Shown: positions 18,185 through 57,668, counted from the first letter of the stretch. The stretch is DNA of 64,000 nt from an uncultured Verrucomicrobiota bacterium (GCA_964570325.1 CAZMXS010000009.1:29894-93893), one strand, 5' to 3'. Notes: generated by a model not told the origin, from the sequence alone. A program made the numbers and translations.

Positions 18185-18212
18185 AGTGCAAAGTGCAAAG
18201 TTCAAGGTTCAA
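18185..18212. repeat. Heptamer array
   Basis: AGTGCAA AGTGCAA AGTTCAA GGTTCAA, in the divergent region between the lipoprotein gene and the XDH-family operon. Confidence 0.75.
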
Positions 18213-18330
18213 CGGGCCGCGAGGGATTCCGGCTGGGGTTCGGCGACAATGCGCTCGCCGGCCGCGCCGCGCCGGTTACAACAAAACGACGGTTTGATTT
18301 TCCCGGCGCATTTGCGTAAACTTTAAGCTG

Positions 18331-20622
18331 ATGAAAGATGAGGTCAGCGAACCGCTGGTTGGCCGCGGGATCATCCGTCTGGATGGCGTGGACAAGGTGC
18401 GCGGTCGGGCGCAGTACACCGACGACCTCGAGATTCCCGGTTGCTGGCACGGCGCGTTGGTCCGCGCGCCGGTGGCGCACGGGCGCTTGCGGGGCCTGCA
18501 TTTCGACCCCGGATTTGACTGGTCGCGCGTGGTGGTCGCCACGCCGGCCGACATCCCCGGGCCGAACATCGTGGTCATGCACGACCGCTCCATGCCCCTG
18601 CTGGCGTTCGACGAAATTCTCTACCTGGGCGAGCCGCTGGCCGTCGTGGCGGCGCCGACCGCGCGGCTGGCGCGCGAGGCGGCCGCGCACATCCGGGCGG
18701 ATGTCGCGGAGCTGCCGGCCATCCTCCATCTACGCGAATTAAGCGACCGCTACAAGGCCGGCGACCTGGCGTGGACGCGGCTGGCGGAAAAACAGATCGT
18801 CAAGGGTGATGTGGCGCAGGGGCTGGCGGCGGCCGATTTCGTCGTCGAAGATGAACACACGGCCGGCCACCAGGAGCAGCTCTACATCGAGCCGCAGGGC
18901 ATGGTGGCGATCCCGCAGGATGACGGCGGTCTGTTCCTTCAGGGCAGCCTGCAATGCCCGTATTATGTGCAGCACGAATTGCACGAGGCGTTGAATTTGC
19001 CTTGCGAGAAAATCCGCGTGAAGCAGGCCGCTGTCGGCGGCGCCTTCGGGGGCAAGGAGGATTATCCAACGATGTTGGGCGGCTACTGCGCGCTCGCGGC
19101 GCTCAAAGCGCGCCGGCCGGTCAAGATCGTGTACGACCGCCACGAGGACATCGGCTTCACGCCCAAGCGCCACCCCGTCTGGGTCCGGCATCGCGGCGGC
19201 GTGAAAAAGGACGGCACCATCACGGCGTTGCAGGTGGATTTCATGCTGGATGGCGGCGCCTACCTGACGTTGAGCGATGTGGTCATGTTTCGCGGCATCC
19301 TGCATGCCGCGCTGGGTTACCGTTGCGAGCATGTCCGGGTCAACGGCATGGTGGCCCGCACGCACACCGTCCCGTCCGGCGCGTTCCGCGGGTTCGGCGC
19401 GCCCCAGGCCATCTGGGGGCTCGAGACGCATATTGACCGCCTGGCCCGGGCCTGCGGCCGGGATCCGCACACTTTTCGGCTGCAGAACTGTCTGCGCCTG
19501 GGCGATACGACGCCGACGGGCCAGGTGTTGCGCGACAGCGTCGGCTCGCCGGCCGTGATCGAAACCGCGTTGCGGCGCGCGGGGTTTGAGGAGAAACTGC
19601 GGCGCTGCTCGCGCGGCCGGCCCGATGCGCGGACCTGGTATGGCATTGGCCTGTCGTTCTTTGCTCACGGCGCGGCCTTCACCGGCGATGGCGAGGTGAA
19701 GATCAATGCCCGCGTGGCCCTGGAACTGGATCGGCTGGAGGACGGCCGGCCCGGCGTGATTGCGCGCGTGAGTTCAACCGAGATGGGGCAGGGCGCCCAT
19801 ACGGTGCTGGCGCAAATGACCGCGGACGGACTCGGCCTCGGTTTGGACCGCGTGCGTTGTCCGTTGCCGGACACCGCGCTGGCGCCGGACAGCGGGCCAA
19901 CGGTTGCCTCGCGCACGACAATGGTCGTGGGAAGCTCATTGTATGGTGCCGCCGCCAAACTGAAGCGGGCGCTGGAAGCAGAGGCCGGCCGGCCGGTCAC
20001 GAAGGATTCTTTTGAGGACATCGCGGCCGCGTATCTGGCGCGGCACAGCCGGCTGCGCATCGAAAATCAGTTCAAACTGCCGGACGACATTCGCTGGGAT
20101 CAACAGCAATTCCGGGGCGATGCCTATCCCGGCTACTCGTGGGGCTGCAACATCGCCGAGGTCGAGATTGATCCGCGCACCTTGGTGGCGCGCGTGGCGA
20201 AAATCACGGCCTGCTATGATATCGGCCGCGTGGTCAATCCGTTGCTCGCCAAAGGACAAATCGAGGGCGGCCTGGTGCAAGCTCTGGGATATGCGGTCAT
20301 GGAGCAAATCGGCATCCGCAACGGAAAATACGACGCCGACCGGCTGCAGACGTATATTATTCCGACGACGCTTGATATCCCGGCCATGGATATCGTGTTC
20401 GTGGAATTTCCCTACGCGCATGCCGCGCCGGGCGCGAAAGGCGTGGGCGAAATCCCGATGGACGGATTGGCGCCGGCCATCGCCAATGCGGTTGAACAGG
20501 CCCTCGGCATCCGGATGCGTGACCTGCCGATCACGCCGGAAAAACTGCTGGCCGCCATCCGCGTTGAAAAACCGGACTTGGCGCGCGCGCTGGGGTTGGA
20601 GGTGGGAATGAGGGGGCCGTAA
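18331..20622 (+). CDS. Xanthine dehydrogenase/aldehyde oxidase family molybdopterin-binding subunit
   Basis: 763 aa. N-terminal a/b-hammerhead region (RLDGVDKVRGRAQYTDD). Followed by 2Fe-2S and FAD subunits. Confidence 0.9.
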   Translation: MKDEVSEPLVGRGIIRLDGVDKVRGRAQYTDDLEIPGCWHGALVRAPVAHGRLRGLHFDPGFDWSRVVVATPADIPGPNIVVMHDRSMPLLAFDEILYLGEPLAVVAAPTARLAREAAAHIRADVAELPAILHLRELSDRYKAGDLAWTRLAEKQIVKGDVAQGLAAADFVVEDEHTAGHQEQLYIEPQGMVAIPQDDGGLFLQGSLQCPYYVQHELHEALNLPCEKIRVKQAAVGGAFGGKEDYPTMLGGYCALAALKARRPVKIVYDRHEDIGFTPKRHPVWVRHRGGVKKDGTITALQVDFMLDGGAYLTLSDVVMFRGILHAALGYRCEHVRVNGMVARTHTVPSGAFRGFGAPQAIWGLETHIDRLARACGRDPHTFRLQNCLRLGDTTPTGQVLRDSVGSPAVIETALRRAGFEEKLRRCSRGRPDARTWYGIGLSFFAHGAAFTGDGEVKINARVALELDRLEDGRPGVIARVSSTEMGQGAHTVLAQMTADGLGLGLDRVRCPLPDTALAPDSGPTVASRTTMVVGSSLYGAAAKLKRALEAEAGRPVTKDSFEDIAAAYLARHSRLRIENQFKLPDDIRWDQQQFRGDAYPGYSWGCNIAEVEIDPRTLVARVAKITACYDIGRVVNPLLAKGQIEGGLVQALGYAVMEQIGIRNGKYDADRLQTYIIPTTLDIPAMDIVFVEFPYAHAAPGAKGVGEIPMDGLAPAIANAVEQALGIRMRDLPITPEKLLAAIRVEKPDLARALGLEVGMRGP

Positions 20623-20667
20623 TCGGTTGGCCGGAGAAGGCGGTTGGGAAACGGTGAATAGCAGGTC

Positions 20668-21177
20668 ATGATGAAAACCGTTAAGCGAAATTGGAAGGTC
20701 AATGGCGAAGTGCGCGCGGTGGAGACGCCACCCATGCGGCGCTTGCTGGATGTGCTGCGGGTGGACCTCGGCCTGAAGGGCACCAAAGAGGGTTGCGGCG
20801 AGGGCGAATGCGGCGCTTGTACGGTGTTGCTCGACGGCGCGCCGGTGGTGGCCTGCCTGGTGGCCGCCGGCCAGGTGACGGACGGCGCGGAACTGATGAC
20901 CGTCGAGGGGCTGGAAAAAACCGAATTAGGCCGGACGCTCCAGCGGGCGTACCTGGAGAAGGGGGCGGCCCAGTGCGGGTTCTGTATCCCCGGCATGCTG
21001 ATGTCCTCGTACGCGCTGCTGGCGCGTGAGCCCGATCCGGACGAACGGCGGATCCGGGAGGCGCATGCGGGCAATCTCTGCCGGTGCACCGGATACGAGA
21101 AAATTGTCGAGGCGGTTCGCTGGGCGGCGGACCAAATGAAGAATTCGAGGTTGAGTGTTCAAGGTTCAAAGGCCTGA
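20668..21177 (+). CDS. (2Fe-2S)-binding subunit of the XDH-family enzyme
   Basis: GCGEGECGACTV, CGFCIPGM and CRCTGY cluster motifs. Confidence 0.9.
   Translation: MMKTVKRNWKVNGEVRAVETPPMRRLLDVLRVDLGLKGTKEGCGEGECGACTVLLDGAPVVACLVAAGQVTDGAELMTVEGLEKTELGRTLQRAYLEKGAAQCGFCIPGMLMSSYALLAREPDPDERRIREAHAGNLCRCTGYEKIVEAVRWAADQMKNSRLSVQGSKA
21151..21171. repeat. Heptamer array inside the 3' end of the 2Fe-2S gene
   Basis: TTGAGTG TTCAAGG TTCAAAG. Encodes the tail ...SRLSVQGSKA. Confidence 0.55.
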
Positions 21178-22045
21178 ATTGAAAACACTGGAAGACATTG
21201 CCTGCGCATTCCCGGATTCGCTGGCCGAGGCGTTGCGGTTGCAGGCCGACGAGCGGACGCGCGGCCGCCCGCTGGCCGGGGGCACCGATCTGCTGGTTCA
21301 GTGGCAGTCCGGGGTATTGTCGTTGCCGGAGCGCGCGGTCAGCTTGGGGCATCTGCCGGAGTTGAAAGGCATCCGCGAAACCGCCGCGGCGGTTGAGATC
21401 GGGGCCGGCGTGACGCACGCGGAATTGCGCGCCTCCGCGCTCGTGCGCGCGCATCTGCCGGCGCTGGCCGCGGCCGCGGCGACGGTGGGCGGCGCCCAGA
21501 TCCAGGCGCGCGGCACGCTCGGCGGCAATGTGGCCAATGCCAGCCCGGCCGGCGATCTCGCGCCGGCGTTGCTGATCACCGGCGGTGCGGCGGTCGTGGC
21601 CGCCGTGAGCGGCGAGCGCCAGGTGGCGCTGGAGCAGTTTTTCCTCGGGTATCGCAAAATTGATCTGCGCCCGGACGAGTTGCTGGTCCGCTTCATTCTC
21701 CCCAAGCGTCCGCCGGCGGCCGTGGAAATGTTTGAAAAGCTGGGCCCGCGCGCCGCGCAGGCCATTTCCAAGGTCATGGGCGCCTGCCGGGTGGTTGTGG
21801 AGCAGGGGGCCGTGCGCGCGGTGGCGGTGGCCTTGGGCAGCGTGGCGCCGGTGCCGGTGCGGCTGCGCGCCCTGGAGGGCTGGTTGGCCGGTCGCAAACT
21901 GGACCCCGCTCTGTTGGACGAGGCGCAGCAACGCGCGTCCGCCGAGGTCGCGCCGATTGATGATATCCGTTCAACCGCCGAATATCGCCGCTGGGTCGCC
22001 GGGCGCATTGTCCGCGGTTTCCTGGCCGCGCTGACCCCCGGTTGA
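21155..22045 (+). CDS. FAD-binding (CoxM/XdhB-like) subunit of the XDH-family enzyme
   Basis: LAGGTDLLVQW and GTLGGNVANASPAGD motifs. The GTG start overlaps the previous gene; the true start may be slightly downstream. Confidence 0.85.
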   Translation: MFKVQRPELKTLEDIACAFPDSLAEALRLQADERTRGRPLAGGTDLLVQWQSGVLSLPERAVSLGHLPELKGIRETAAAVEIGAGVTHAELRASALVRAHLPALAAAAATVGGAQIQARGTLGGNVANASPAGDLAPALLITGGAAVVAAVSGERQVALEQFFLGYRKIDLRPDELLVRFILPKRPPAAVEMFEKLGPRAAQAISKVMGACRVVVEQGAVRAVAVALGSVAPVPVRLRALEGWLAGRKLDPALLDEAQQRASAEVAPIDDIRSTAEYRRWVAGRIVRGFLAALTPG

Positions 22046-25701: not shown

Positions 25702-25743
25702 TTCAAATTTCCCGGTTCCCAGTTGACTTTGGCGCCGCCCCGT

Positions 25744-25765
25744 CCCGGAACCTTGAACGTTGAAC
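25744..25765. repeat. Heptamer array (short)
   Basis: CCCGGAA CCTTGAA CGTTGAA between the convergent permease and gpsA ends. Confidence 0.5.
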
Positions 25766-26754
25766 TATTCTTTCTTCGGATCCCGGCTCATTAGCGCCAG
25801 GACGGCTGCGCGCGGTGGCTTTCCATGGTGGATGACCGCGCAAACCTCGGCGGTGATGGGAACCTCGACGCCGCGCTCCAGCGCCAGTTGCCGCGCGGTT
25901 TCGCAGGTCCACACGCCCTCCGCCACCTGGACCATGCTCGCGCGGATTTGCGCGATCGTCTCACCGCGCCCCAGCCGTTCGCCAACGGTCCGGTTGCGGC
26001 TCAATTGGCTCATGCACGTGACGACCAGGTCGCCCATGCCGCTCAGGCCGGCGAAGGTCGCGGGTTGCGCGCCCAGCGCGGCGCCGAGCCGCGCGATCTC
26101 CGCCAGCCCGCGCGTGATTAGCGCCGCCTTGGCGTTGTCGCCGAGGCCGATCCCGTCGCACACGCCGGCGGCGATGGCGATCACGTTTTTTAGCGCGCCG
26201 CCCAGTTCCACGCCGATCACATCGTCCGAGGTATAGACGCGAAAAGACTTCCCGTTGAACGCGGCTTGCAGCGCCCGCGCCCGCACATGGTCGGCGCAGG
26301 CAATGGTCACCGCCGCCGGGACGCCGCGCGCGACCTCGGCCGCGAGGCTCGGGCCCGAGAGCGCGGCGACCGGCCCGTGGCGCAGCACTTCGCCCGCCAC
26401 CTCGGTCATCCGCTGGCGCGTTTGCTCGTCCAGCCCCTTGGTGACGCTGATCACCAGGCTGGCGGCTGGAATCAGCGGCGCGAAACGGGATACCACCGGG
26501 CGGAAGAAATGCGACGGCACGGCCAGCACGACTATCTCGGCGCCGGCCGCGACCGCCCCCTCGTCAGCGGTCCATTCAATGTCCTCCGGCAGCGGGACGC
26601 CCGGTAGAAACTTGAAATTCTCCCGCCGCGCGCGGAGTTCCGCCAGGTATTCCGGGAAAGGGCCCCAGACCCGCACCCGGTGCCCGTTGCCGCGCAAGGT
26701 CAAAGCCAGGGCCGTGCCCCAGCCGCCGTCGCCGATGATCGCGATATGGCTCAT
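25765..26754 (-). CDS. gpsA: NAD(P)H-dependent glycerol-3-phosphate dehydrogenase
   Basis: IAIIGDGGWGTALA Rossmann motif and GALKNVIAIAAG motif. Downstream of plsY. Confidence 0.9.
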   Translation of the reverse strand: MSHIAIIGDGGWGTALALTLRGNGHRVRVWGPFPEYLAELRARRENFKFLPGVPLPEDIEWTADEGAVAAGAEIVVLAVPSHFFRPVVSRFAPLIPAASLVISVTKGLDEQTRQRMTEVAGEVLRHGPVAALSGPSLAAEVARGVPAAVTIACADHVRARALQAAFNGKSFRVYTSDDVIGVELGGALKNVIAIAAGVCDGIGLGDNAKAALITRGLAEIARLGAALGAQPATFAGLSGMGDLVVTCMSQLSRNRTVGERLGRGETIAQIRASMVQVAEGVWTCETARQLALERGVEVPITAEVCAVIHHGKPPRAAVLALMSRDPKKE

Positions 26755-26782
26755 GTTGGCTCTCCATGCCGGCGTGTCAAAA

Positions 26783-26812
26783 TCAGAGGTCAGAAGTCAG
26801 AGGTCAGAGGTC
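26783..26812. repeat. Heptamer array
   Basis: TCAGAGG TCAGAAG TCAGAGG TCAGAGG. The minus-strand reading CCTCTGA x4 gives TGA in all three frames. Confidence 0.8.
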
Positions 26813-26820
26813 CGCGCGCC

Positions 26821-26924
26821 GGATTTGATCGGTTAATGCATATTTTTCTGCTCTTGGCCAATCTTGGCTGACATCGAAAATCTGCATCGCCAACGCATAT
26901 GCCTTATTGTAAACGATCAAATCC
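26821..26924. other. Perfect 11-bp inverted repeat pair enclosing an AT-rich spacer (core of a long imperfect palindrome)
   Basis: GGATTTGATCG (26821-26831) and CGATCAAATCC (26914-26924). The inner GCATAT/ATATGC and TTGGC segments also pair. Confidence 0.6.
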
Positions 26925-26948
26925 TTCGCCGACTTTATCTGCATTCTC

Positions 26949-27614
26949 TCATATCTCCTTATTTACCCTCTGCCCCTCTGATCTCTGCCCTCTGCCAAAC
27001 TCAAACCGATGCTCCGTGCCCGCCAGCAGCCGCTGGATGTTGCTTCGATGCCGCCAGATAACCAGCGCGCCCAGCACCGTCAGCGTAATCGGCAACACGC
27101 GTCCGCGGCCGCCGTACAACCACCACCCGGCGGCCGGCACCGCGACCGCCGCGCCGATCGAGGCTGCCGACACGATGCGGCTGGCCAGCAACAGCGCCAC
27201 CCACACCGCCAACCCGATTCCCACGGCGGCCGGCGCGACGCCCAACAGCACCCCCGCGCTGGTCGCGACGCCCTTGCCGCCCTTGAAGCCGAGATAAACC
27301 GGCCAGTTGTGCCCGGCGAATGCGGCGCAGCCGCACACCAGCCCCAGGTTTTCCAATGCTTGGAAATCCGGGTCGAGCATTTTTCCAATGATTGGAAAAA
27401 CAAACGCCGGCACAAACCCCTTCAGCGCGTCCGCCGCGAACGTGACCATCCCCAGCGGTTTGCTGACCGACCGGAAAACATTGGTCGCGCCAATGTTGCC
27501 GCTGCCGACCCGCCGGATGTCCACGCCCTTCAGCCGCGCCAGCAAGAGCCCGACGGGGATCGCGCCCAGCAGGTAGGAGACCAGAATCAGTCCGATAGCG
27601 ACGGGCCAGCTCAT
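26949..27614 (-). CDS. plsY: Glycerol-3-phosphate acyltransferase PlsY
   Basis: LLGAIPVGLLLAR, SGNIGATNVFR and NWPVYLGFKGGKGVAT motifs. Confidence 0.9.
   Translation of the reverse strand: MSWPVAIGLILVSYLLGAIPVGLLLARLKGVDIRRVGSGNIGATNVFRSVSKPLGMVTFAADALKGFVPAFVFPIIGKMLDPDFQALENLGLVCGCAAFAGHNWPVYLGFKGGKGVATSAGVLLGVAPAAVGIGLAVWVALLLASRIVSAASIGAAVAVPAAGWWLYGGRGRVLPITLTVLGALVIWRHRSNIQRLLAGTEHRFEFGRGQRSEGQRVNKEI
26966..26996. repeat. Heptamer array, inverse of 26783-26812, inside the plsY 3' end
   Basis: CCCTCTG CCCCTCTG ATCTCTG CCCTCTG. Encodes the PlsY tail GRGQRSEGQR. Confidence 0.7.
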
Positions 27615-27621
27615 AATCAGA

Positions 27622-27649
27622 CCTGAAACTTGAAACCTGAAATCTGAAA
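27622..27649. repeat. Heptamer array
   Basis: CCTGAAA CTTGAAA CCTGAAA TCTGAAA, just upstream of the plsY start (minus strand). Confidence 0.8.
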
Positions 27650-27669
27650 GGGGGCTTCTTTTATTCCGG

Positions 27670-27697
27670 TTTCAGGTTTCATCCCTCAAGTTTCATT
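27670..27697. repeat. Heptamer array, inverse partner of 27622-27649
   Basis: TTTCAGG TTTCATC CCTCAAG TTTCATT. Contains the stop codon of the response-regulator gene. Confidence 0.75.
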
Positions 27698-28369
27698 TTT
27701 TTCTTCCACCCATTTCACGGCCTCGCGCATCAATTGCGCGGCCGTCTCGCAGTTGAGCTTTTTCTTGATGTGCATCCGATGAACCTCGACGGTGCGCTCG
27801 CTGAGCTCGTATTGCGCGGCAATATCGCGCGTGCTCAAGCCGCGGCCGATGCACTCGAAAATTTCGCGTTCCCGTTCGGTCAGGCTGTTCACCGGGCCGC
27901 CGCCGTCGGCGGCCGGCTGGGCCAGGCTGCGCAGAACCTGCGGCGCGATTTGCGGGTTGATGTAGATGTCGCCGCGCAGCACGGCGCGGATGGCGTCCAC
28001 GATCGCATCGTCGGCATTCTCCTTCATGACGTACCCCAGGGCGCCGGCGCGCAGGGCGCGCTCGGCGTAGATGGTCTCGTCGTGCATTGAGAGCACGAGC
28101 GCCCGGGCGGGGAACCCGCGGGCGCGGGCGTCACGGATCAGGTCAAGCCCGCTGCGGTCCTTCAGGGTGATGTCCACAAGCAGGATGTCCGGCTGCAATT
28201 CGGGGATCAGCCGCATCGCCTCGTCGTAGCCGGCGGCCTCGCCGCATACGCGCAGGTCCGGCGCGCGGGCGAGCAGCGCAGCCAACCCGCGGCGCACGAT
28301 CGCATGATCGTCTATGATCAGAATGCTCGCGGGCCGGGTTGGAGCTGGGTGCGGGGTCTTGTTGCTCAT
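27686..28369 (-). CDS. NarL/FixJ-family response regulator (REC + LuxR-type HTH)
   Basis: ILIIDDH...LLVDITL REC motifs. C-terminal LTEREREIFECIGRGLSTRDIA HTH. Confidence 0.9.
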   Translation of the reverse strand: MSNKTPHPAPTRPASILIIDDHAIVRRGLAALLARAPDLRVCGEAAGYDEAMRLIPELQPDILLVDITLKDRSGLDLIRDARARGFPARALVLSMHDETIYAERALRAGALGYVMKENADDAIVDAIRAVLRGDIYINPQIAPQVLRSLAQPAADGGGPVNSLTEREREIFECIGRGLSTRDIAAQYELSERTVEVHRMHIKKKLNCETAAQLMREAVKWVEEKNET

Positions 28370-30318: not shown

Positions 30319-30358
30319 ATGGCCACAAAAAGCGCAAAAAGACACGAAAAAAGAAATC
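30319..30358 (-). promoter_or_regulatory. Phased T-tract upstream element (copy A), ends 15 nt before the kinase ATG
   Basis: Minus strand reads GATTTCTTTTTTCGTGTCTTTTTGCGCTTTTTGTGGCCAT. No Shine-Dalgarno follows. Confidence 0.5.
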
Positions 30359-31440: not shown

Positions 31441-31475
31441 TCAATCAATTGCAAATTACAAATCGGAAATCGCAA
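31441..31475. repeat. Heptamer array
   Basis: TCAATCA ATTGCAA ATTACAA ATCGGAA ATCGCAA, directly upstream of a sigma70-like promoter. Confidence 0.6.
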
Positions 31476-31493
31476 AATTTCGTCATCTACGTA

Positions 31494-33094: not shown

Positions 33095-33135
33095 AAACGC
33101 TCTGCGGGGGAAAGCCCCCGCGGAGCGTTTTTTTT
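33095..33135 (+). terminator. Rho-independent terminator
   Basis: AAACGCTCTGCGGGGG-AAAG-CCCCCGCGGAGCGTTT (16-bp stem with one G-U pair) followed by T8. Confidence 0.85.
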
Positions 33136-43075: not shown

Positions 43076-43092
43076 TCAGTAATCAGATATGA
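43069..43092. repeat. Heptamer array
   Basis: CCAGTGA TCAGTAA TCAGATA TGA. Contains the gene stop plus stops in the other frames. Confidence 0.65.
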
Positions 43093-43918: not shown

Positions 43919-45892
43919 GTGCGGTTTGTCATGGAATGGAGCCAAAAAAACATGGCCTGGCTGTTGGCCGCCGTCCTGGTTTTGGGCGCGGCGCTGCGTG
44001 TGATTTATTACCGCGAGATACGGTCAGCGCCCGAATTCGGATTCCCGGCGGTTGATGCGGGTTATCATGATGCCTGGGCCCGAGCCGCCGTCAGCGGCGA
44101 CTGGAATCCGACCAAGCAGAATGATGTGTCCGCCATACCCGGCAACGCTTATCTTCGGCCGCCGGGCTATACCTGGTTCCTGATCTGGGTTTATCGAATT
44201 TTCGGGCCGAAATATGCCGCCGTCCGAATCGCTCAGATGGGGCTGGGATTGCTGAACATCGTATTGGCGTTCGCGCTTGGGCGGCGCCTGTTTGATATGG
44301 CAACCGGCTTGATCTGGGCGCTGATGATGGCCGTTTACTGGGCGTTCATTTACTTTGAAGGCGAACTCCTGGAACCGACGGTTTTGATTACATTGAGCTT
44401 GGCGTTGATGCTCGCGCTGGAAGGCTGGCGCCGGGATCGTTTGCCGCGGCAAGCAATCAGCGTCGGCGTCTGGCTGGGGCTATTTGCCGTTACCCGACCG
44501 AATATCCTGCTGTTTGCGCCGGTGGTCCTGCTTTGGCTGGGTTGGAACGAACGCTGGGCGCCGGTGCGGGCGGTCAGGGCGTCGGCCTTCTTTATCCTTG
44601 GGATGGCGGTCATTATCCTGCCGGTCACATTGCGCAACATTATCGTGGCGGGCGACCTGGTGCTGATTTCGTCCAATGCCGGGATCAATCTTTACATCGG
44701 CAACAATGAGCAGGCGGATGGTCTGTTTATCGGACATGTGCCGGGGTCCGATGAGTTTGGGACCAGCGACGTCTATCCGGAAATCGTTCAACGGATGGAG
44801 CGCAAGGAGGGGCGGCGGCTCAAGTATTCGGAAGTATCGCGTTATTTCAGCCGCCAGGCTTGGGATTATATCCGCGCGCATCCGCGCGCGACATTCAGGC
44901 TGCTGGTTCGAAAGGCCCTGCTGTTCTGGGGCCCGTTGGAGACCGGGCATAATAAGTCCATTTATTACGACCGGGCTTTCTCGCGGTTGCTGTCCCGACT
45001 GCCGTTGGATTTCGCGGTGGCGCTGGCGCTGGCGCTGCTGGGCGCGGCGACTTGTTTTTGGCGGCATGCGGCTTGTGCAGGCTTGCCCCGGTCCGGCAAC
45101 TCAAGCGCCATGCTGGTTTTGATCCTGCTGTTTATCCTCGTGTATTTCGCATCATTTCTGCCTTTCTTTGTTACGGGCCAATATCGTGTGCCGGTCATTC
45201 CGTTTCTGATGCTTTTCGCGGCCTGGGCGGTGCGCGGCTGGTTCGGCTTGTTGGCGGGCCGGCGTGGGCGGGCGGCGCTGGCCTGGCTGGCGGGGCTGGC
45301 GCTGCTGTACGCGTGTGTTTCGGTTAATTATGCCGGCTTCGAGCCCAACCTGGCGAAGTGGCATTTCGATCGTGGGACGGCGTTCGGCAAGCAGGGCCGG
45401 ACAGCGGAAGCCGAGCAGTCGTACCGGGCGGTGATTTCCGCCGACCCGGCGTCGGCCGAGGCGTGGATGAATCTCGGACTGGTTGTTGAAAAACGAGCCG
45501 GACCGGAGGCGGCGGAGCCCTATTACCGGCGCGCGCTGGAACTACGGCCTGACCTGGCCAAGGCCTACAATAATCTGGGCAACAACTTGTTTCGCCAGCA
45601 TCGGCTGGCGGAGGCCGTGCAATGCTATCAATCTGCGTTGACCTTGCGCCCATCAGCCGCGGATGTTCACAAAAACCTGGCGGCGGCGTTGCTGGTCCTC
45701 AACCGCCCCGCGGAGGCCGTGCCCCATTTTGAGGCGGCGTTGCGGCTCGATCCGGACAGCCCGCGCGCGGAGGCCGGGCTGGCGGAGGCGTTGGGGAGGC
45801 TGGACCGCAAGGCCGAGGCGGCGGAGCATTTCCGGCGGGCATGGGAACTGCAGGGGAAGAAGAAGCCGCCCAATCTGAAACCTGAAATCTGA
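43919..45892 (+). CDS. GT39/PMT_2-type (ArnT-like) GT-C glycosyltransferase fused to C-terminal TPR repeats
   Basis: Polytopic N-terminal domain with YLRPPGYTWFLIWVYRIFG (PMT_2-like). C-terminal TPR units. GTG start; alternative ATG at 43931. Confidence 0.7.
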   Translation: MRFVMEWSQKNMAWLLAAVLVLGAALRVIYYREIRSAPEFGFPAVDAGYHDAWARAAVSGDWNPTKQNDVSAIPGNAYLRPPGYTWFLIWVYRIFGPKYAAVRIAQMGLGLLNIVLAFALGRRLFDMATGLIWALMMAVYWAFIYFEGELLEPTVLITLSLALMLALEGWRRDRLPRQAISVGVWLGLFAVTRPNILLFAPVVLLWLGWNERWAPVRAVRASAFFILGMAVIILPVTLRNIIVAGDLVLISSNAGINLYIGNNEQADGLFIGHVPGSDEFGTSDVYPEIVQRMERKEGRRLKYSEVSRYFSRQAWDYIRAHPRATFRLLVRKALLFWGPLETGHNKSIYYDRAFSRLLSRLPLDFAVALALALLGAATCFWRHAACAGLPRSGNSSAMLVLILLFILVYFASFLPFFVTGQYRVPVIPFLMLFAAWAVRGWFGLLAGRRGRAALAWLAGLALLYACVSVNYAGFEPNLAKWHFDRGTAFGKQGRTAEAEQSYRAVISADPASAEAWMNLGLVVEKRAGPEAAEPYYRRALELRPDLAKAYNNLGNNLFRQHRLAEAVQCYQSALTLRPSAADVHKNLAAALLVLNRPAEAVPHFEAALRLDPDSPRAEAGLAEALGRLDRKAEAAEHFRRAWELQGKKKPPNLKPEI

Positions 45893-45915
45893 AACCTGAA
45901 AATATGAAACCTGAG
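45874..45915. repeat. Heptamer array
   Basis: TCTGAAA CCTGAAA TCTGAAA CCTGAAA ATATGAAA CCTGAG. TGA occurs six times; the gene stop is the third. Confidence 0.85.
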
Positions 45916-48251: not shown

Positions 48252-49054
48252 CCGGCGGGACGCGTCGCGCTGCCGTTGGGGATTTTTTGGGGGGGCTGGG
48301 CCGATCCATTTTTCCCGCAGCAATTCTTGTATTTCCGCCCGCTGCCGCAGGGACAAGGCGCATTACGGCCCGCCGGTGTAGCTTCCAGTTGCCGGGCGAC
48401 CGATCCGGGCCGGCGCAGGTAAAACGGCGCAAGCGCCACCATGAAAATTGCGAGCGCGAGAAACTGCCGGCCGCCGGTGCTGAGAAAGAGTTTCCAGAAA
48501 GTCAATCCGGACCGCGGGCCGAAGAATTCATCCAGCATGGCGATATTTTCCGGCGTGCCGTGGATGCGGACCCGAGCCACATCGCCGGCGAAGGCTTCGA
48601 CCGCGCCCCAGAGCAGCGCCAGCGGCAGGTCGCTCAGCTCGACCAGGACCAGCAAGGGGAAGGCCAGGGCCAGCGCCAGCAGCCGCCGGCGCCAGGCCAG
48701 CGGCCAGGCCAGCAGCAGCATCAAAACAATCGCGGGCGCGATCAAGACCGAGGTCGTGGAGGTGTGGACATCGGTGGTCAAATTGGTTTGGAAGCGGCCC
48801 CGCCGGTCAGTGTGCTCGACCGGCAGGGCGAAGGTGAGCTGGAGGTCGGCCCCGCACAAATCCAGGCGTTGCACCTGCAAGGGCGTGAGCCATTCCAGCT
48901 CCGCCTTGAACAACGGCAGCAGCGGGCGGATCAGCCACTGGCCGGCGACCAGCATGGCCCCGGAGACCAGCAGGAAGGCCAGCGCCAGGCGCAACACCAG
49001 GCGGCGAATAAATCGGACCGGGCTACCGGTCGGCTGGAGGGGTGGATTGTCCAA
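48248..49054 (-). CDS. Membrane protein with C-terminal SEC-C metal-binding motif, exosortase-H neighbour
   Basis: Several TM segments. C-terminal APCPCGSGRKYKNCCGKN (SEC-C motif). TTG start is uncertain; an internal GTG is possible. Confidence 0.65.
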   Translation of the reverse strand: MDNPPLQPTGSPVRFIRRLVLRLALAFLLVSGAMLVAGQWLIRPLLPLFKAELEWLTPLQVQRLDLCGADLQLTFALPVEHTDRRGRFQTNLTTDVHTSTTSVLIAPAIVLMLLLAWPLAWRRRLLALALAFPLLVLVELSDLPLALLWGAVEAFAGDVARVRIHGTPENIAMLDEFFGPRSGLTFWKLFLSTGGRQFLALAIFMVALAPFYLRRPGSVARQLEATPAGRNAPCPCGSGRKYKNCCGKNGSAQPPQKIPNGSATRPAG

Positions 49055-49550
49055 AGCGTTCGATCCAGAAAAGGAAAAAAGCCACGCCGATAAAGATGAT
49101 GACGACCTGCCAGAAATACAGGTGCGCGAAGTCGAACCACGCCGGCCGGTAACGGAAGATGTAGTAGAGGCTGATGATCCGGACCAGGTTGACGACGTAA
49201 ATCAAAGCGATGCCGGCGGCGATGCCTTCGAGCTTGCGGCGCGCCGGCATGAAATAAGCCGCGAGGGCGGCTATCACCAGGATCATGGTTTCAATTCCTT
49301 CGCAGCCTTTCGCGATGCTCAAGCTGATGCCCGGCGCCGTGATGGCGTCCCGCCGGGCAACGGTTCGTTCGCCGGGCGTGCAGAGATTGATGATGCGCGA
49401 GGCGGTCCCGGCGTTTAGGCGATGGATGATGAACCGCGAGACGTATGGCGTGGAAACCAGGTACAAGCCCATCAGTGCCGTGAAAATGACCGCGAAGCGG
49501 ACAAAGAACACGATCGGCCGGCGATTAGTTTGAAAAAACGATGAGTTCAA
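49023..49550 (-). CDS. xrtH: Exosortase H (IPTLxxWG-CTERM-specific)-like small exosortase
   Basis: 175 aa, polytopic. IAKGCEGIE (catalytic Cys region), conserved downstream Arg (VNLVRI) and a later His. Next to an IPTL-CTERM protein. TTG start lies inside a heptamer array. Confidence 0.7.
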   Translation of the reverse strand: MNSSFFQTNRRPIVFFVRFAVIFTALMGLYLVSTPYVSRFIIHRLNAGTASRIINLCTPGERTVARRDAITAPGISLSIAKGCEGIETMILVIAALAAYFMPARRKLEGIAAGIALIYVVNLVRIISLYYIFRYRPAWFDFAHLYFWQVVIIFIGVAFFLFWIERFGQSTPPADR

Positions 49551-49564
49551 AGTTCAAGGTTCCA
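49544..49564. repeat. Heptamer array
   Basis: AGTTCAA AGTTCAA GGTTCCA. Confidence 0.7.
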
Positions 49565-49591
49565 ATCTACAGTATCAATAGCCTGTAGATT
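49564..49591 (-). other. 9-bp stem hairpin between inverted heptamer arrays
   Basis: AATCTACAG-TATCAATAGC-CTGTAGATT, 5 nt after the stop of the IPTL-CTERM gene. No U-tract follows. Confidence 0.4.
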
Positions 49592-49595
49592 GCAT

Positions 49596-50282
49596 TCAGC
49601 CAACTTTGAACTTTAGACCTTGAACTTTGAACCCGGTTTTGCGGAGCGCCAGTCCGGCCAGCAACAGGGCCATGATGCCCAGGCCCCATTCCGTCAGCGT
49701 CGGGATCTGGGCCGCGGCGGTCGAGATGCCGAACTCGCCGATGGCGAAACCATAGGCGGTACGTTCGACCACGATATGGATCATGGCGATTGTCTGGGTT
49801 TCGCTGCCGGTATAGAACCCGAAGCCGTTGGCGCCGGCGCTGCCGGCCACCATGATGGGCCCGGAGGATGTGCCGTCGTTGGCCGTGGCGGTGATGGCAT
49901 AGTTCCCCCAGCGCTCGGGTTCGATATAGAAATAGAAGGCCGTGGTGTTGGTCGGCAGGTGGAGCGTGATGTTCGTGCGGAACCAGCCGGCGAATACCGG
50001 ACCGGTGTAGCCGTGACTCCAGGTCAGCCAGGAATCCGGCACAGTTTGCTTGGTCAGGTTGGCGGAAAGCGTAAGTTGGCCGGGGATCGGACAGCCGGGA
50101 ATGTTGGTGGTGGCGGCGCCATCAGCCAGCGCGGATTGGGGGGCGGGGTCGAAGCGGGCGACCGGGATGGTGCCCAAAACGGGCGGTGGCGCGGTCAGTC
50201 CGAGGTTGACGAAGGTGATTTCGGCGCGACCGACGGGCGCCAGAATGAGGAATGCCCCAAGAATCACAAGAAAATGCCGCAT
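49596..50282 (-). CDS. IPTL-CTERM sorting-domain protein
   Basis: Signal peptide MRHFLVILGAFLILAPVGRA. C-terminal IPTLTEWGLGIMALLLAGLALRK. Alternative upstream starts at 50294 and 50336. Confidence 0.75.
   Translation of the reverse strand: MRHFLVILGAFLILAPVGRAEITFVNLGLTAPPPVLGTIPVARFDPAPQSALADGAATTNIPGCPIPGQLTLSANLTKQTVPDSWLTWSHGYTGPVFAGWFRTNITLHLPTNTTAFYFYIEPERWGNYAITATANDGTSSGPIMVAGSAGANGFGFYTGSETQTIAMIHIVVERTAYGFAIGEFGISTAAAQIPTLTEWGLGIMALLLAGLALRKTGFKVQGLKFKVG
49604..49632. repeat. Heptamer array, inverse of 49544-49564
   Basis: CTTTGAA CTTTAGA CCTTGAA CTTTGAA. Encodes the tail GFKVQGLKFKVG. Confidence 0.8.
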
Positions 50283-52604: not shown

Positions 52605-52646
52605 CCGGAAGGATGAATTGGAAACTTGAGACCTGAAATTTGAATG
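52605..52646. repeat. Heptamer array (degenerate NNGRRRN x6)
   Basis: CCGGAAG GATGAAT TGGAAAC TTGAGAC CTGAAAT TTGAATG. Confidence 0.6.
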
Positions 52647-53716: not shown

Positions 53717-53737
53717 TTAAGGAGCAGTATTCAGTAA

Positions 53738-53767
53738 CCGGTGATCGCTGATCGCTGACGACTGATT
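53738..53767. repeat. Heptamer array
   Basis: CCGGTGA TCGCTGA TCGCTGA CGACTGA TT. TGA x4 in all frames, between two genes of the same strand. Confidence 0.8.
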
Positions 53768-53778
53768 ATTGTCTCAAT

Positions 53779-56346
53779 ATGTCAGCTTGGAAGACCATCG
53801 TTATTTCTTTATTGCTGACCTTGCTGGTTTGGGTGTGCTTCTCCTGGCCGCTGCCGCGCTATGTGGCTGCCGGCATCCCGTCCTCCTCAACTAATTTGGA
53901 AAAAGGCGGGGTGCGGGCCATGTTTCAGGGTGATCATCTCCAGTTGCTTTACAATTACTGGATATTCGCTGACATGCTGGCCGGCCAGACGCCCTGGTTT
54001 CACAATGTCTATGAGTTCAACACCGGCGATGACGCCGCCCGGCGGCAGGGGGGGAGCTACAATGTTCCTTTCTCGCTGGTGTTCGCGGCCGGCTATGCCG
54101 TGGGCGGACGCGCATTTGGTTGGAACTTGGCCGCGTTCTTTTCGCTTTGGATCACGCATCTGTTCACCTGGTGGCTGCTGCGCAACTACACGCGGCGCGA
54201 CGCGGTGGCCGCATGGATGGCGCTGATAGCGGTGGCTTTGCCCTACCGTTGGGCTATGCAATTGGGCGGCAGCCCCGCCGGTCCGGCAATGGCCTGGGTG
54301 CCGTTCCTGCTGCTTGGGCTGGAGGCGCTGTTCCGCCGCTCCAGTATCAGGGGCGGCTGCGTCGCCGCGCTCGCGATCCTCTTTTCCTGGTGGAATGACA
54401 GCCACGTATTTCTCTTTAACGTGCTGCTGCTGCCCGCCTGGAGCCTGTTGGTGCTGGTCCAGCGCGAGCGGCCGCTATGGCGCGAGCGCCGTGAGTGGGC
54501 GCGCCTCGCGGTGGCGCTGTTGCCGCTGGCGATGGTGACGGGGGCGGTGGTGCTCGCCAGCCTCATCGAGCTTCGCGCGGCCGCGGCCGCCACAAATATC
54601 GGCACGGGTCGGACATGGCGGGAGATCGCGCTTTTCTCGCCGCGGCCGGCGGGGTTGCTGGCCTGGCGCGCGGCCGGCAACGATAACGCGGCCTACGTGG
54701 GCTACGTGGCGCCGGTGCTGATCGCGGTTGGCCTGCTTGTCCAACTGGCGCGATTCAGGCGCGCTCCGCGCGCCGAATGGCGCGCGACCGTTGTCATGCT
54801 GATGCTGGTTGCCGGCATGCTGCTGCTCGTCGCGCTGGCGCTTGGCGCATACGGGCCGGGCGAGGGCCGCCTGTTCGCCATCGCGCGCAAGTTGGTTCCG
54901 CCGCTCAACAAGGTGCGCCAACCCGCCAAGCTGCTGATCCTCCTGCCCCCGTTGCTGGCGGTCGGCGCGGCCTTCGCGCTGGATCGAATTCTGAACTTAT
55001 GGCGCGGCCGGTTCGCGCCGGGCTTGCGGGGGGCAAATTGGGGTGAGGGTTTGTGGCCGGCCGTTGTGGTAGCCCTGCTTTTTTTGATTGAGTATGACTT
55101 CCAGGTGCGCCCGACCATCTGCCTTTTGGATACGCAGCAGGCGGCCTATGCGGCGGTCGCGGCGGATGCCGCGCGGGCCGGCCGGGTTCCGCGCGCGGTG
55201 ATCGTTCCCCTCTGGCCGGGCGATTCATCGTGGGCCTCGCTCTACGAACATTATGTGTCGCTCTACCGCATCCGGATGCTCAACGGTTACCGGCCGGTGG
55301 TGGCGCGCGATTACATTACCAATGTCTTTGAGCGTTTCGGTTACATCAATCTGGGCGAATTGCCCGACGACCGGCTCGATGAACTGCGCGCCCGCGGATT
55401 TGATTACATCATCCTGCATGAGGATGCGTTCCCCGAAAAGGTCAGTCCGTTTCCGGTGGCTTTCACCTTGCGGCGGTTGTTGGAGCATCCCCGCCTGGAC
55501 TTGCTCCGGCAGGCGGAAAATGTCTGGGCGTTCAAGATTCGCGATCAACCGGTCGAAAAAGCAACGCCCGTCGGCGACTGGAACGTGTTCTTCCCGGGCG
55601 GGCCTTACGAATTGGATACGCCGCTGCCCGCCGATTGCGTCGTGGCGGGCGATGCCACGGCGACCGGCGACCGCTATGCGCGCCTGACGCCGGAAGCCGG
55701 CGCGTTGCCGCTGCGCAAAATGATCCATTGGAACGCGCCGGACCCCGCGCTGCTTTTCCGGGCGCGCGGCCACGGCGAATTGAAGATCAAGTTTCTTTAT
55801 GACTCCGGCGCGGTGGCGACCCAGTGGCTCGAGCTGGCCACGGATCGCTGGGACTGGCGGCGGGTGGACTTGCCCGCGCCGGTGTCCGGGCGCTGGGTGA
55901 CGATCCAGGCGGCGTGCAAGACGGGCGCGGTTGACTTGGACGCGATGATCTATGTCTCTGGCGCGTTGCCCGATCTGGCGCCGGGGGCCGGTTGCCGGCT
56001 GCCCGCTCCGCTTTTTTATCACGCCGGTTATACCGACCTGGCCGGCCATGGCGTTTGTTTCCGGTCGCGCAATGAGCCGGATGCGGGGATATTTTACGGT
56101 CCGCGCCTGCCGTTGCCCGCCGGGCGTTATCAGTTGGAATTGGAATATGAATCGCCCGCGCCCGCCGGCACCGTGTTGGGCCGGTTGGCGCTTGACGGGG
56201 GCCGATCCGTGCCCGTGGCGGCCGGGGGCGCCGCCGTCCTGGAATATACGGCGCTGGCGGGCGACCCGCCGCTGAACCTGGTTTTCTCCTATACGCGCGC
56301 CGCGGATATGGTGATCCGCGGCGTTACCATCACAAGGATCGAATAA
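53779..56346 (+). CDS. Large polytopic membrane protein with C-terminal soluble domain (putative GT-C-type glycosyltransferase)
   Basis: 855 aa, more than 10 TM segments followed by about 400 aa of soluble sequence. First gene of a coupled operon. Family not recognised. Confidence 0.6.
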   Translation: MSAWKTIVISLLLTLLVWVCFSWPLPRYVAAGIPSSSTNLEKGGVRAMFQGDHLQLLYNYWIFADMLAGQTPWFHNVYEFNTGDDAARRQGGSYNVPFSLVFAAGYAVGGRAFGWNLAAFFSLWITHLFTWWLLRNYTRRDAVAAWMALIAVALPYRWAMQLGGSPAGPAMAWVPFLLLGLEALFRRSSIRGGCVAALAILFSWWNDSHVFLFNVLLLPAWSLLVLVQRERPLWRERREWARLAVALLPLAMVTGAVVLASLIELRAAAAATNIGTGRTWREIALFSPRPAGLLAWRAAGNDNAAYVGYVAPVLIAVGLLVQLARFRRAPRAEWRATVVMLMLVAGMLLLVALALGAYGPGEGRLFAIARKLVPPLNKVRQPAKLLILLPPLLAVGAAFALDRILNLWRGRFAPGLRGANWGEGLWPAVVVALLFLIEYDFQVRPTICLLDTQQAAYAAVAADAARAGRVPRAVIVPLWPGDSSWASLYEHYVSLYRIRMLNGYRPVVARDYITNVFERFGYINLGELPDDRLDELRARGFDYIILHEDAFPEKVSPFPVAFTLRRLLEHPRLDLLRQAENVWAFKIRDQPVEKATPVGDWNVFFPGGPYELDTPLPADCVVAGDATATGDRYARLTPEAGALPLRKMIHWNAPDPALLFRARGHGELKIKFLYDSGAVATQWLELATDRWDWRRVDLPAPVSGRWVTIQAACKTGAVDLDAMIYVSGALPDLAPGAGCRLPAPLFYHAGYTDLAGHGVCFRSRNEPDAGIFYGPRLPLPAGRYQLELEYESPAPAGTVLGRLALDGGRSVPVAAGGAAVLEYTALAGDPPLNLVFSYTRAADMVIRGVTITRIE

Positions 56347-57644
56347 TGGTGCCGCCTCGTTTGTGCCGGTTGGTGTTCGCGTTGCTGGACGGGTTGTTCC
56401 TGGTCATGCTGGCGATTTCGGCGCTGGCGTGGCTGCTGGATCCGCTGAAGTTGCCGGCCGGCGCGCGGGTCTGGGAGGTCGAGCCGTCCGCGCCGGTGCT
56501 GGTGATCCCGTTGATCCTGCTGCTGCTGCGGTTGGCGCTCAAGGTGTTCTGCGCGCGCGACACGCCCGTCCGCGGTCTTTGGGAGATCGCCATCGTGCGC
56601 AAGGCGGCGCTGGCGGTTGGCGGCACCTGGCTCTTTTTTTTGGCGTGGGAGGGGGTGCTGGCCGCGCTGAAGTTCGAGGCGCCGCTGCCGCCGGTGGTCA
56701 TTCGCGGGGAACATTCCACCAACGAGTTTAGCGAAGCGTTGATTCCCGATCCGGATCTGATCTGGAAGTTCAATCCCGGCAAGGATTTCAAGGGCCGCCG
56801 CGTGAACGCCATGGGTTTCCTGGACCGCGAAGTGAATCCGGTCAAGGCGCCCGGCGCCATCCGCGTGATCTGTCTGGGCGACTCCTGCACGGGCCAGGGG
56901 ATCCCGCCATATTCCGGGCTCCTGCACCAGCGCCTGACGAATTCCCCGCCGACCGCTGCCGCATGGGAAGCGTTCAACATGGCCGTGCATGGCTATTCCG
57001 TTGTGCAGGGCTTGCGGCTGTTCCAATTGCGCGGGCGCGCGCTGCAGCCGGATATTGTGACCATCTATTACGGCTGGAATGATCATTGGATTGACCGCCA
57101 GCCGGACCGCCGGCGGGTGGTGCTGGCCATGCCGCAACTGGCGGCCCGGGTTTATGTCAAGCTGGCGCGCAAACGCTTCTTTCAAATGCTGGTCTGGCTG
57201 GCCGGCGGCACGCGCCGGCCGTCGGACGACAAGCGCACGTGGGGCTACCGGGTGCCGCAGGACGATTACCTGAAGTCGCTGGCCGAACTCGCGCGCGAGA
57301 TTCGCGCCGCGGGCGCGGTGCCGTTGATTATCACCGCGCCGCGTGCGGAACGGTTGACGCCCTTGCTGGTGCGGAACAACCAGGCCCGGACCCTCGATGA
57401 AGCGATGATGACCCACGATATGTACAACGACCTGGCCCGCGAGACGGCGCGCAACCACGCCATCCCCATTCTGGACCTGGCCGCGATGTTCCGCGCCACG
57501 GAATGCGCGCCATTGTTTTCGGATGACGGCATCCATTTCAAGGATGAAGGCCGTGCCCGGATCGCGGCGGAGATTGACCGGAAAATCCGGGAGATTGTCA
57601 AAACCCAGGAGTGGGCGACGCGCAGGCGGAAACCCGAAGGATGA
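56346..57644 (+). CDS. Membrane-anchored SGNH/GDSL hydrolase-family protein (possible O-acetyl-transferase/esterase)
   Basis: Block I CLGDSCT (GDS), block III GWND, block V DDGIHF (DxxH). N-terminal TM segments. TAATG coupling. Confidence 0.7.
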   Translation: MVPPRLCRLVFALLDGLFLVMLAISALAWLLDPLKLPAGARVWEVEPSAPVLVIPLILLLLRLALKVFCARDTPVRGLWEIAIVRKAALAVGGTWLFFLAWEGVLAALKFEAPLPPVVIRGEHSTNEFSEALIPDPDLIWKFNPGKDFKGRRVNAMGFLDREVNPVKAPGAIRVICLGDSCTGQGIPPYSGLLHQRLTNSPPTAAAWEAFNMAVHGYSVVQGLRLFQLRGRALQPDIVTIYYGWNDHWIDRQPDRRRVVLAMPQLAARVYVKLARKRFFQMLVWLAGGTRRPSDDKRTWGYRVPQDDYLKSLAELAREIRAAGAVPLIITAPRAERLTPLLVRNNQARTLDEAMMTHDMYNDLARETARNHAIPILDLAAMFRATECAPLFSDDGIHFKDEGRARIAAEIDRKIREIVKTQEWATRRRKPEG

Positions 57645-57668
57645 AGCCAGAAACCGGAAAATGGGAGC
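57627..57668. repeat. Heptamer array (degenerate NNGRARN x6)
   Basis: CGGAAAC CCGAAGG ATGAAGC CAGAAAC CGGAAAA TGGGAGC. Contains the SGNH gene stop. Confidence 0.5.

Follow-up and report, generated by a model that had tools for sequence, protein, structure and literature searches.

Tandem heptamer arrays between genes of an uncultured Verrucomicrobiota bacterium as probable arms of intervening-sequence-like stem-loop elements

We analysed 64,000 nucleotides from an uncultured Verrucomicrobiota bacterium (GCA_964570325.1, CAZMXS010000009.1:29894-93893), here called the window and numbered from its first letter, in which short tandem arrays of 7-nt units lie between genes. On the whole, these arrays are probably heptamer repeats of the kind that builds the arms of stem-loop elements resembling intervening sequences (IVSs). 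A full element would comprise a sense array, a small gene for a four-helix-bundle protein (TIGR02436 / S23p / Avd-like) and a complementary array, inserted co-directionally between two ordinary genes. The window would then hold one decayed full element (26783-26996), two gene-less stem-loops (27621-27700 and 49544-49632) and one self-complementary array (53737), the rest being lone or short arrays (Table 1).

The window has a G+C content of 62-66%, falling to 54.5% at 32-36 kb, and its proteins are nearest to those of Kiritimatiellia metagenome bins (hits named Kiritimatiellae/Kiritimatiellia), with gpsA at most 73% identical; in a species-level genome collection the best protein identities are 49-56%. 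Public metagenome contigs encoding identical proteins are 99-100% identical to the window and belong to the same population, and through them the regions 16.9-37.6 kb and 40.3-61.2 kb have gene calls made independently of ours. Period-7 arrays were detected by Tandem Repeats Finder (TRF) and by a lag-match scan, with thresholds of 12/14 (strict) and 11/14 (lax), against dinucleotide-preserving shuffles. In the whole window, the strict scan detects nine period-7 arrays versus 0.3 in the shuffles, and none at periods 4, 5, 8, 10, 11 and 13, while hits at periods 6, 9, 12 and 15 reflect codon periodicity. In the intergenic DNA (36 padded segments, 7.4 kb, with 200 shuffles as control), six arrays are detected at 12/14 against 0.06 expected (at most one in the 200 shuffles) and ten at 11/14 against 0.44 expected, with 0 to 3 arrays at periods 5, 8, 10 and 11. 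TRF likewise reports nine period-7 arrays (18183, 26783, 26966, 27621, 31447, 45875, 49544, 49602 and 53742). Period-7 hits inside genes are either of a different kind, being G+C-rich and of low complexity, or open reading frame (ORF) tails encoded by the arrays, which themselves have 47% G+C against 59% in other non-coding DNA. Among Kiritimatiellia relatives, 27 period-7 arrays are found in 229 kb (1 to 6 at other periods) and 36 in 671 kb (1 to 10 at other periods), and in diverse bacteria the period-7 excess is only about 2-fold. The arrays are thus non-chance 7-nt tandems, with an excess peculiar to this period and found mainly in non-coding DNA, as the heptanucleotide long simple sequence repeats (SSRs) of the Mrazek type are, and they are a real, lineage-enriched form of heptanucleotide repeats.

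These results bear out the original prediction in that the arrays are real at the places named and exceed shuffled intergenic sequence, while its count of at least 15 loci is generous. Nine loci are solid, with at least 2.7 units and 75-92% lag-7 identity (18183, 26783, 26976, 27621, 31447, 45872, 49544, 49602 and 53739), four have only 2.1-2.6 units (21157, 25748, 27664 and 43070), and two are weak (52616 with 10/14 lag matches and 57636 with 13/18). It is also true that the arrays lie on gene boundaries, yet this says little beyond "intergenic": proximity to starts and stops adds little because most spacers are only 60 to 200 nt long, and for the array at 31447 the neighbouring genes are 271 nt away on one side and 145 nt on the other. 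The arrays do form a distinct, non-random intergenic class, apart from coding periodicity, CRISPR and ordinary terminators. CRISPR is ruled out, its repeats being 23-50 nt with unique spacers while the units here are 7 nt and contiguous, coding periodicity is rejected on anatomy, and repetitive extragenic palindromic (REP) elements appear unlikely on the same ground.

The decayed full element stands at the plsY-gpsA junction. Here public gene calls give a 46-aa product with a PF05635 (23S_rRNA_IVP) match between the 26966 and 26783 arrays, and the remnant at 26804-26944 matches TIGR02436 with an E value of 1.3e-6 by hidden Markov model (HMM). In relative L142 an intact 127-aa gene stands at the corresponding place and shares 66% identity with the remnant; the order there is plsY, six CAGAGGT units, the intact gene, a CCTCTGA array and gpsA, the L142 gpsA being 71% identical to that of the window. 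The plsY ORF of the window runs through the 26966 arm; its usual end in relatives is HRFxFGKK followed by the stop. In 10 other relatives the junction is compact and array-free, one more has a lone TCAGCGG array, another a 20-unit CCAACAT array, and L144 has a TIGR04256 GxxExxY gene instead. The different arrays and genes found across lineages indicate that this junction is a site of repeated gain. In L159, 20 CMAACAT units (9745-9882) stand directly upstream of gpsA.

The same architecture recurs across phyla. For the cross-phylum survey of L142-gene homologues (headed GENERALISING), 80 homologues were fetched from the species-level genome collection, 62 of them with full flanks. Their identity is 60-76% and their hosts belong to Verrucomicrobiota, Planctomycetota, Acidobacteriota, Bacteroidota, Desulfobacterota, Methylomirabilota and others; such identity, far above that of housekeeping proteins over these phyla, suggests horizontal spread. 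When the 150 nt before the gene are compared with the 150 nt after it, inverted repeats turn up for 46 of the 62 homologues; control windows moved 500 nt outwards give none in 61 cases. Everywhere the arms consist of heptamer arrays of one unit type, written (TCAGAGG/TCAGGAG)n on the upstream side and (CCTCTGA/CTCCTGA)n on the downstream side, and an arm may have as many as 15 units. At these loci, which were chosen via the gene, three or more TCAGRRG units stand upstream in the sense orientation in 47 of 62 cases and in the antisense orientation in 4 (control windows, 4 of 61), and the complement is found downstream in 38 of 62. An HMM search of all fetched DNA yields 91 family members; a period-7 array precedes the gene in 80 of them, and complementary arrays flank it in 59. 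The divergent members carry TGCGAAT, AGTGGCC, AGTAGTC or CCTGAAA units, with the unit type varying with the protein subfamily, and gene-less TCAGAGG hairpins adjoin some family loci. By Rfam, none of 20 related four-helix-bundle loci tested contains rRNA. The longest arms are exemplified by L266, with 15 units on each side of the gene (1395-1498 and 1906-2009).

A second subfamily, the L369 type, has more than 7900 relatives and lies co-directionally inside operons, in contexts such as DUF218, gene, exosortase or epimerase, gene, dehydratase-like gene. Its CCTGAAA/TTTCAGG arms read GAGACCTGAAACTTGAGACCTGAAACC on the 5' side and TTTCCGGTTTCAGGTTTCAGG on the 3' side, and their unit is also that of the window arrays at 45872 and 52605; the string CTTGAGACCTGAAA is common to the 52605 array and the 5' arm of L430. 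As to copy number, for which a comparison among relatives had been suggested, whole-unit differences are found: L430, L433 and L434 encode the same protein, with 3' arms whose lengths differ by complete units, and the 99.4%-identical contigs L159 and L160 are set apart by a single 7-nt unit in another array. These two contigs diverge most in a CACGAAAT/ATTTCGTG-type hairpin (L159 5756-5834), with 11 small indels. The suggestion that the arrays are footprints of slippage or insertion comes close to this evidence, given the whole-unit indels and a pair flanking a decayed inserted gene; the slippage itself is what we infer.

The data above also bear on the alternative that the arrays are plain heptanucleotide microsatellites, that is, long SSRs of the Mrazek type produced by neutral slippage and filtered from ORFs, with no relation to cassettes or RNA structure. 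Such a reading would suit the whole-unit indels between strains, the 2-fold excess even in unrelated genomes, the different arrays acquired per lineage at the plsY-gpsA junction, and the lone arrays, which are unstructured and partnerless; heptamers are moreover the over-represented SSR class in many bacteria (cited in PMC4679880 and PMC4692102). Random seeding, however, does not predict that a few units recur over phyla and loci; the arm polarity around the gene is strict (47 sense versus 4 antisense), inverted pairs are common, and complementary arms have been retained in both the window and L142, with proteins about 66-71% identical. Already, the data here tend toward unit sharing across phyla beyond composition and toward co-variation of arms and gene, and hence against plain microsatellites, which we regard as an unlikely explanation.

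The three inverted pairs of the window are confirmed, with partner scores of 27-32 against shuffle maxima of 19-23. RNA folding of the transcribed strand gives z-scores versus shuffles of -3.2 (27612-27705), -7.5 (49538-49640) and -4.2 (26750-27010). The 27621/27664 hairpin matches in unit and polarity the arms around the four-helix-bundle genes of L369, L426 and L430, and its 27621 arm ends 7 nt before the plsY ATG. Within the 49544/49602 pair lies an inner 10-bp hairpin at about 49566-49593, and the 49602 arm is translated as the tail of an IPTL-CTERM protein, ending in GFKVQGLKFKVG and the stop. The surroundings of this pair (49023-50282) are an IPTL-CTERM sorting-signal protein, the gene-less heptamer hairpin and an exosortase (EpsH-like) gene; in L426, a four-helix-bundle gene with CCTGAAA arms is directly upstream of an exosortase gene. 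For arrays outside the three pairs, no inverted partner within 400 nt scores above shuffles, and the lone arrays are predicted by RNA folding to be unstructured, bar the self-complementary one at 53737.

Stable stems between genes might suggest that the hairpin arrays are transcription terminators or attenuators, and slippery terminator hairpins were among the roles first proposed; on the plus strand, antisense here, the 27621-27700 hairpin is indeed followed by TTTTTTT. Nevertheless, none of the 57 consensus terminator-like sites in our scan coincides with any array, the transcribed-strand stems run directly into start codons with no U-tracts, and stems occur inside apparently co-transcribed gene pairs. 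We therefore give almost no credence to this role. A consensus promoter scan also shows no coincidence with arrays, and Rfam 15 gives no match on the window at the gathering score.

As to the units, three classes, TCAGRRG, CCTGAAA/CTTGAGA (class II) and CTTGAAC (class IIb), the last two being one base apart, accommodate 11 or 12 of the 15 arrays, and two consecutive class units occur in 0 of 577 background non-coding windows. Accordingly, the statement that the unit differs between loci is correct in that several unit types exist, and overstated in that most arrays belong to only three classes. Outside the window, three YTGAAAC units in tandem are found at 120 or more loci in Flavobacterium, Bacteroidales, Pyrinomonadaceae, Desulfobacterales, Pirellulaceae and Verrucomicrobiota, many of them as inverted pairs with loops of 5-120 nt. 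An IMG/VR viral contig (L494) carries CGTTGAA/GTTCAAM arrays at many gene ends, which means that viral genomes carry heptamer arrays too; it also has a tandem pair of four-helix-bundle genes with such an array after each, and appears phage-like, its translations being terminase- and portal-like by eye only.

Several observations weigh against tying all these arrays to stem-loop elements with a gene. In the window, the gene remnant is physically linked to only one of the arrays, a tblastn search for further four-helix-bundle or GxxExxY fragments returns only 26813-26944, and the putative link of the lone arrays to the gene family is one of unit similarity alone. Three arrays (31447, 43070 and 53737) fit no class. 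A gene adjoins 2 or 3 of the at least 120 YTGAAAC loci, and among at least 120 viral contigs with three tandem GTTCAAR units only one has the gene. The same-population contigs show no copy-number variation in the window arrays, and the choice of the TCAGRRG loci via the gene must be kept in mind. Since the arrays far outnumber the genes, the array or hairpin would be the primary element and the gene an occasional cargo in classes II and IIb.

Frame-independent stop pads, or translational insulators, had been proposed as well, with TGA- or TAA-bearing arrays kept to close three frames between coupled genes. The arithmetic is right, since three TGA-bearing heptamers do close all three frames, and two genes of the window end on an array TGA: the first unit at 43070 provides the stop (43073-43075) of gene 41084-43075, and gene 43919-45892 runs 2.5 units into the 45872 array and ends on the TGA of the third unit (45890-45892). 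Among 28 co-directional arrays of the window and relatives, 12 carry stops in the sense strand alone and 3 in the antisense strand alone, while 5 carry them in both strands and 8 have none, so that the claimed sense-strand bias is present, though it shrinks to 12 versus 5 once two miscalled loci are corrected. Of the co-directional spacers with arrays, 7 of 8 have all three frames closed, but so do 9 of 16 array-free ones, and the difference is not significant. TGA/TCA occurs in 47% of units versus 17% in the background, and ACT/AGT is equally enriched. Meanwhile, the 5' arms at 26966 and 49602 have no sense stops and are translated. Some sense-stop bias would arise in any case, since an array lacking sense stops makes the upstream protein longer, and pairing in a hairpin requires one arm to have TGA where the other has TCA. 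A weak bias is thus explained by composition and by selection on ORF length, and we consider stop pads as a function very unlikely.

Another possibility is that the 7-nt units are protein-binding sites on RNA or DNA, with a post-transcriptional regulator (S1, Csp or CsrA, already put forward for TAACTGA repeats) or the pentameric four-helix-bundle protein as candidates, which would regulate translation downstream. The arrays at 27621, 45872, 53737, 26783 and 18183 stop 6 to 30 nt short of a start codon, as TAACTGA repeats do, the unit type shifts with the subfamily of the enclosed protein, and TCAGGAG and TCAGAGG contain the Shine-Dalgarno-like GGAG and GAGG, their complement being anti-Shine-Dalgarno-like. 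Against this, both orientations occur upstream of starts (CTGA-bearing sense arrays at 26783, 45872, 52605 and 53737, the reverse at 27621), one genome has several unit classes, and simple co-inheritance would equally make unit and protein vary together; binding sites are accordingly judged improbable, less so than stop pads. The omega repressor of pSM19035 binds WATCACW heptads, and an operator of this type was considered for the CAGTGAT units and set aside, the array units being too variable for one operator protein.

Among known systems, the closest relative of these stem-loop elements is the IVS of Coxiella burnetii 23S rRNA, which has the same architecture and a different location. The Coxiella IVS is a selfish element whose S23p ORF occupies the loop of a stem formed by 28-bp terminal inverted repeats, with two or three tandem GACAGAT heptamers, strain-variable in number, upstream of the ORF; it is excised by RNase III with the 5' cut at the first repeat, and its ORF is decaying (PMC4990558). 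Its likeness to the elements here, shared by the S23p IVS of Leptospira (PMC4990558), thus extends to the S23p/PF05635 ORF in the loop of a terminal-inverted-repeat stem, the heptamers of variable number just upstream of it, the decay-prone ORF and the sporadic occurrence that looks like horizontal transfer. At 26783-26996, an S23p-type ORF (44-residue remnant), an inverted-repeat stem and 5' heptamers are all present. In contrast to the IVS in helix 25 or 45 of 23S rRNA, the window elements lie between protein-coding genes; with the location between plsY and gpsA and no rRNA in the window by Rfam, the decayed element is not an insertion in either helix. In addition, the arms here are longer arrays (up to 15 units), most window arrays are without an ORF, and the stems are predicted from folding, whereas RNase III excision is experimental in Coxiella.

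Other tandem or palindromic repeats resemble the arrays in part. The short tandemly repeated repetitive (STRR) sequences of cyanobacteria are tandem heptamer families in the intergenic DNA of one lineage, for which we know of no function; the window arrays are alike in being lineage-specific intergenic heptamer families and differ in unit sequences and taxon. REPs are conserved palindromic units of 20-40 nt mobilised by RAYT transposases. As REP/REPIN sequences do, the arrays here lie in extragenic DNA and operon junctions, often as inverted pairs that form hairpins, but their arms are tandem 7-mers of variable number and order with no long conserved unit, and no RAYT gene is seen among the window proteins scanned, to which the search was limited. 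The heptanucleotide long SSRs (Mrazek et al. 2007) include GGGAATC of Xanthomonas and GGGGAYT of Nostoc (PMC4692102), and repeats of Calothrix are also mentioned there. These too are over-represented 7-nt tandems, intergenic, length-variable and occasionally in inverted pairs; the units of the window, however, are not G-rich and are quadruplex-incapable, several classes coexist, and a link to a gene family with fixed arm polarity is not known to have been described for those repeats. The TAACTGA direct repeats of marine Beggiatoaceae, cyanobacteria and Bacteroidetes come as 2 to 6 tandem heptamers, nearly all intergenic and often a few nt before a start codon, they sometimes overlap the end of the upstream ORF, and their unit is common to distant phyla (PMC4679880). 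CTGA is also contained in CCTCTGA, CCTGAAA and TCAGTRA here. The differences are that one unit dominates there and several here, that no associated gene is reported there, and that inverted pairs are found in 1 of 170 sets there and are prominent here (PMC4679880). TAACTGA itself is not found among the window arrays, the nearest being TCAGTAA/TCAGTGA at 43070, one mismatch from the complement TCAGTTA. In the literature, nothing was found on TCAGAGG-type tandem strings, or on the gene family together with heptamer repeats, except the Coxiella IVS (PMC4990558), and none of the papers on the Mrazek, Xanthomonas/Nostoc and TAACTGA repeats makes a connection to the four-helix-bundle family.

If the arrays are arms of IVS-like elements, their behaviour may be outlined as follows. 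They would resize in 7-nt steps by slipped-strand mispairing, a mechanism suggested by the whole-unit differences observed. They would persist only outside ORFs or as short C-terminal tails, since a period of 7 breaks reading frames; both the intergenic restriction and the read-through tails are observed. Inverted arrays are predicted to form long stems in the transcript, in which shifts of register are tolerated, and RNase III, by analogy with the Coxiella 23S IVS, may cut these stems, separate the flanking cistrons and free the loop. Lone arrays may be half-elements or arrays born by slippage. A bolder proposal, which we hold possible but on balance doubtful, is that heptamer-array stem-loops are a pan-bacterial and also phage-borne mobile family of IVS-like elements that enter the gene junctions of ordinary operons as well as rRNA genes, and whose occasional pentameric Avd/S23p-like cargo reads the 7-nt units or aids their spread. 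If it were true, the heptanucleotide excess seen as STRR, TAACTGA and GGGAATC would be the footprint of an element family and not a quirk of polymerase slippage. Heptanucleotide repeats have been an unexplained oddity of many bacterial genomes since 1990-2007, and to our knowledge no role of the S23p / four-helix-bundle proteins is known beyond diversity-generating retroelements. The present data tie the two together through hairpin arms of fixed polarity, with units that recur across phyla, in ordinary operons. There is also a consequence for annotation: gene callers extend ORFs through the arms, giving false C-terminal tails (as in plsY and the IPTL-CTERM protein), and put start codons within arrays.

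Table 1. Heptamer arrays and the associated gene remnant in the window (a dot marks features given no strand).
Feature	Position	Strand	Description
Solo array	18183-18212	.	4.3 units GTGCAAA/GTTCAAR, class IIb (CTTGAAC on minus strand)
Short array	21151-21178	+	About 2 units GTTCAAG/GTTCAAA
Short array	25746-25765	.	2.6 units CCTTGAA/CGTTGAA, convergent spacer
3' arm of decayed cassette	26783-26812	-	Sense CCTCTGA x4; ends 29 nt before gpsA ATG (26754)
TIGR02436 / PF05635 gene remnant (S23p, Avd-like)	26804-26944	-	N-terminal 44 residues only, fused to 3' arm
5' arm of decayed cassette	26966-26996	-	Sense CAGAGGG-type units, one indel; stem z -4.2
3' arm, gene-less hairpin	27621-27649	-	Sense TTTCAGR x4; between response-regulator gene and plsY
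5' arm, same hairpin as 27621	27664-27700	-	Sense TGAAACY units; overlaps stop of gene 27686-28369
Solo array	31447-31476	.	AATTGCA/AATTACA/AATCGGA/AATCGCA, middle of 445-nt spacer
Short array	43070-43086	+	2.4 units CAGTRAT
Solo array	45872-45914	+	About 6 units YCTGAAA, class II; 14-nt higher-order repeat (TRF periods 7, 14)
3' arm, gene-less hairpin	49544-49564	-	Sense CTTGAAC/TTTGAAC; upstream of exosortase gene
5' arm, same hairpin as 49544	49602-49632	-	Sense GTTCAAA/GTTCAAG x4.4
Weak array	52605-52645	+	Contains CTTGAGA CCTGAAA (class II); upstream of epimerase gene
Array	53737-53759	+	2.9 units TGATCGC; 12/13 lag matches
Weak array	57627-57660	+	GAAACC-type periodicity over stop codon of gene 56346-57644

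Some details of the single loci may be added. The 18183 array, with 21/23 lag-7 matches, is found between divergent genes, 20 nt ahead of the ATG (18163) of the minus-strand one, and has neither an inverted partner within 400 nt nor a predicted structure. The array at 21151 overlaps the stop codon (21175-21177) of gene 20671-21177. For the 25746 array there is a weak inverted partner at 25702-25719 (folding z -1.6). The one at 31447 has 18/23 lag matches and only one unit within one mismatch; it bears a weak likeness to the arms, of AATTGCG units, around a third four-helix-bundle gene (L253, 442-863). The CAGTRAT unit type of 43070 is found as long arrays in relatives L147 (15 units) and L015; the L147 array (1994-2097) includes TCAGTTA, the complement of TAACTGA. 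While the 45872 array is predicted to be unstructured, the partly self-complementary one at 53737, between the epimerase gene and an 855-aa gene, gives a local hairpin with z -4.75. A short period-7 stretch absent from the original prediction, CAATGGG CCATTGG CAATTGG, lies at 57730-57752 in the spacer before gene 57760.

Repeats of another period were also seen. Two gene starts in the window are immediately preceded by CACGAAAAG-type repeats, whose period is about 10 (39010-39039 and about 30325-30355). In relatives, GxxExxY genes (TIGR04256, PDDEXK_3) lie between inverted arms of tandem 9-10 nt units, of the CACGAAA type in L144 (9540-10000) and CACRGAGTW in L180, which makes them a second small-gene family with the architecture of a hairpin cassette; further loci of the period-10 or GxxExxY type are present in L151 (5400-5500) and L036.

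Elsewhere in the window, the low-G+C stretch at 31.2-36.0 kb (54.5%) looks like an acquired island and contains a PIN-domain gene, an HTH/Gp49 pair and two AAA_14/DUF4143 ATPase genes. Inside it there is a textbook terminator at 33095-33130, with a 16-bp stem and a T-run, and an internal duplication in gene 31621-32403, whose 143-nt segments 31834-31976 and 32173-32315 are 85% identical and about 340 nt apart. Within a gene for a 657-aa TPR/PMT_2 protein, the 104 nt at 45113-45216 correspond to 10 nt in the same-population contig L134, where the gene call is split, which may be either a polymorphism or an assembly difference; the segment adjoins 9-nt coding repeats at 45252-45307.

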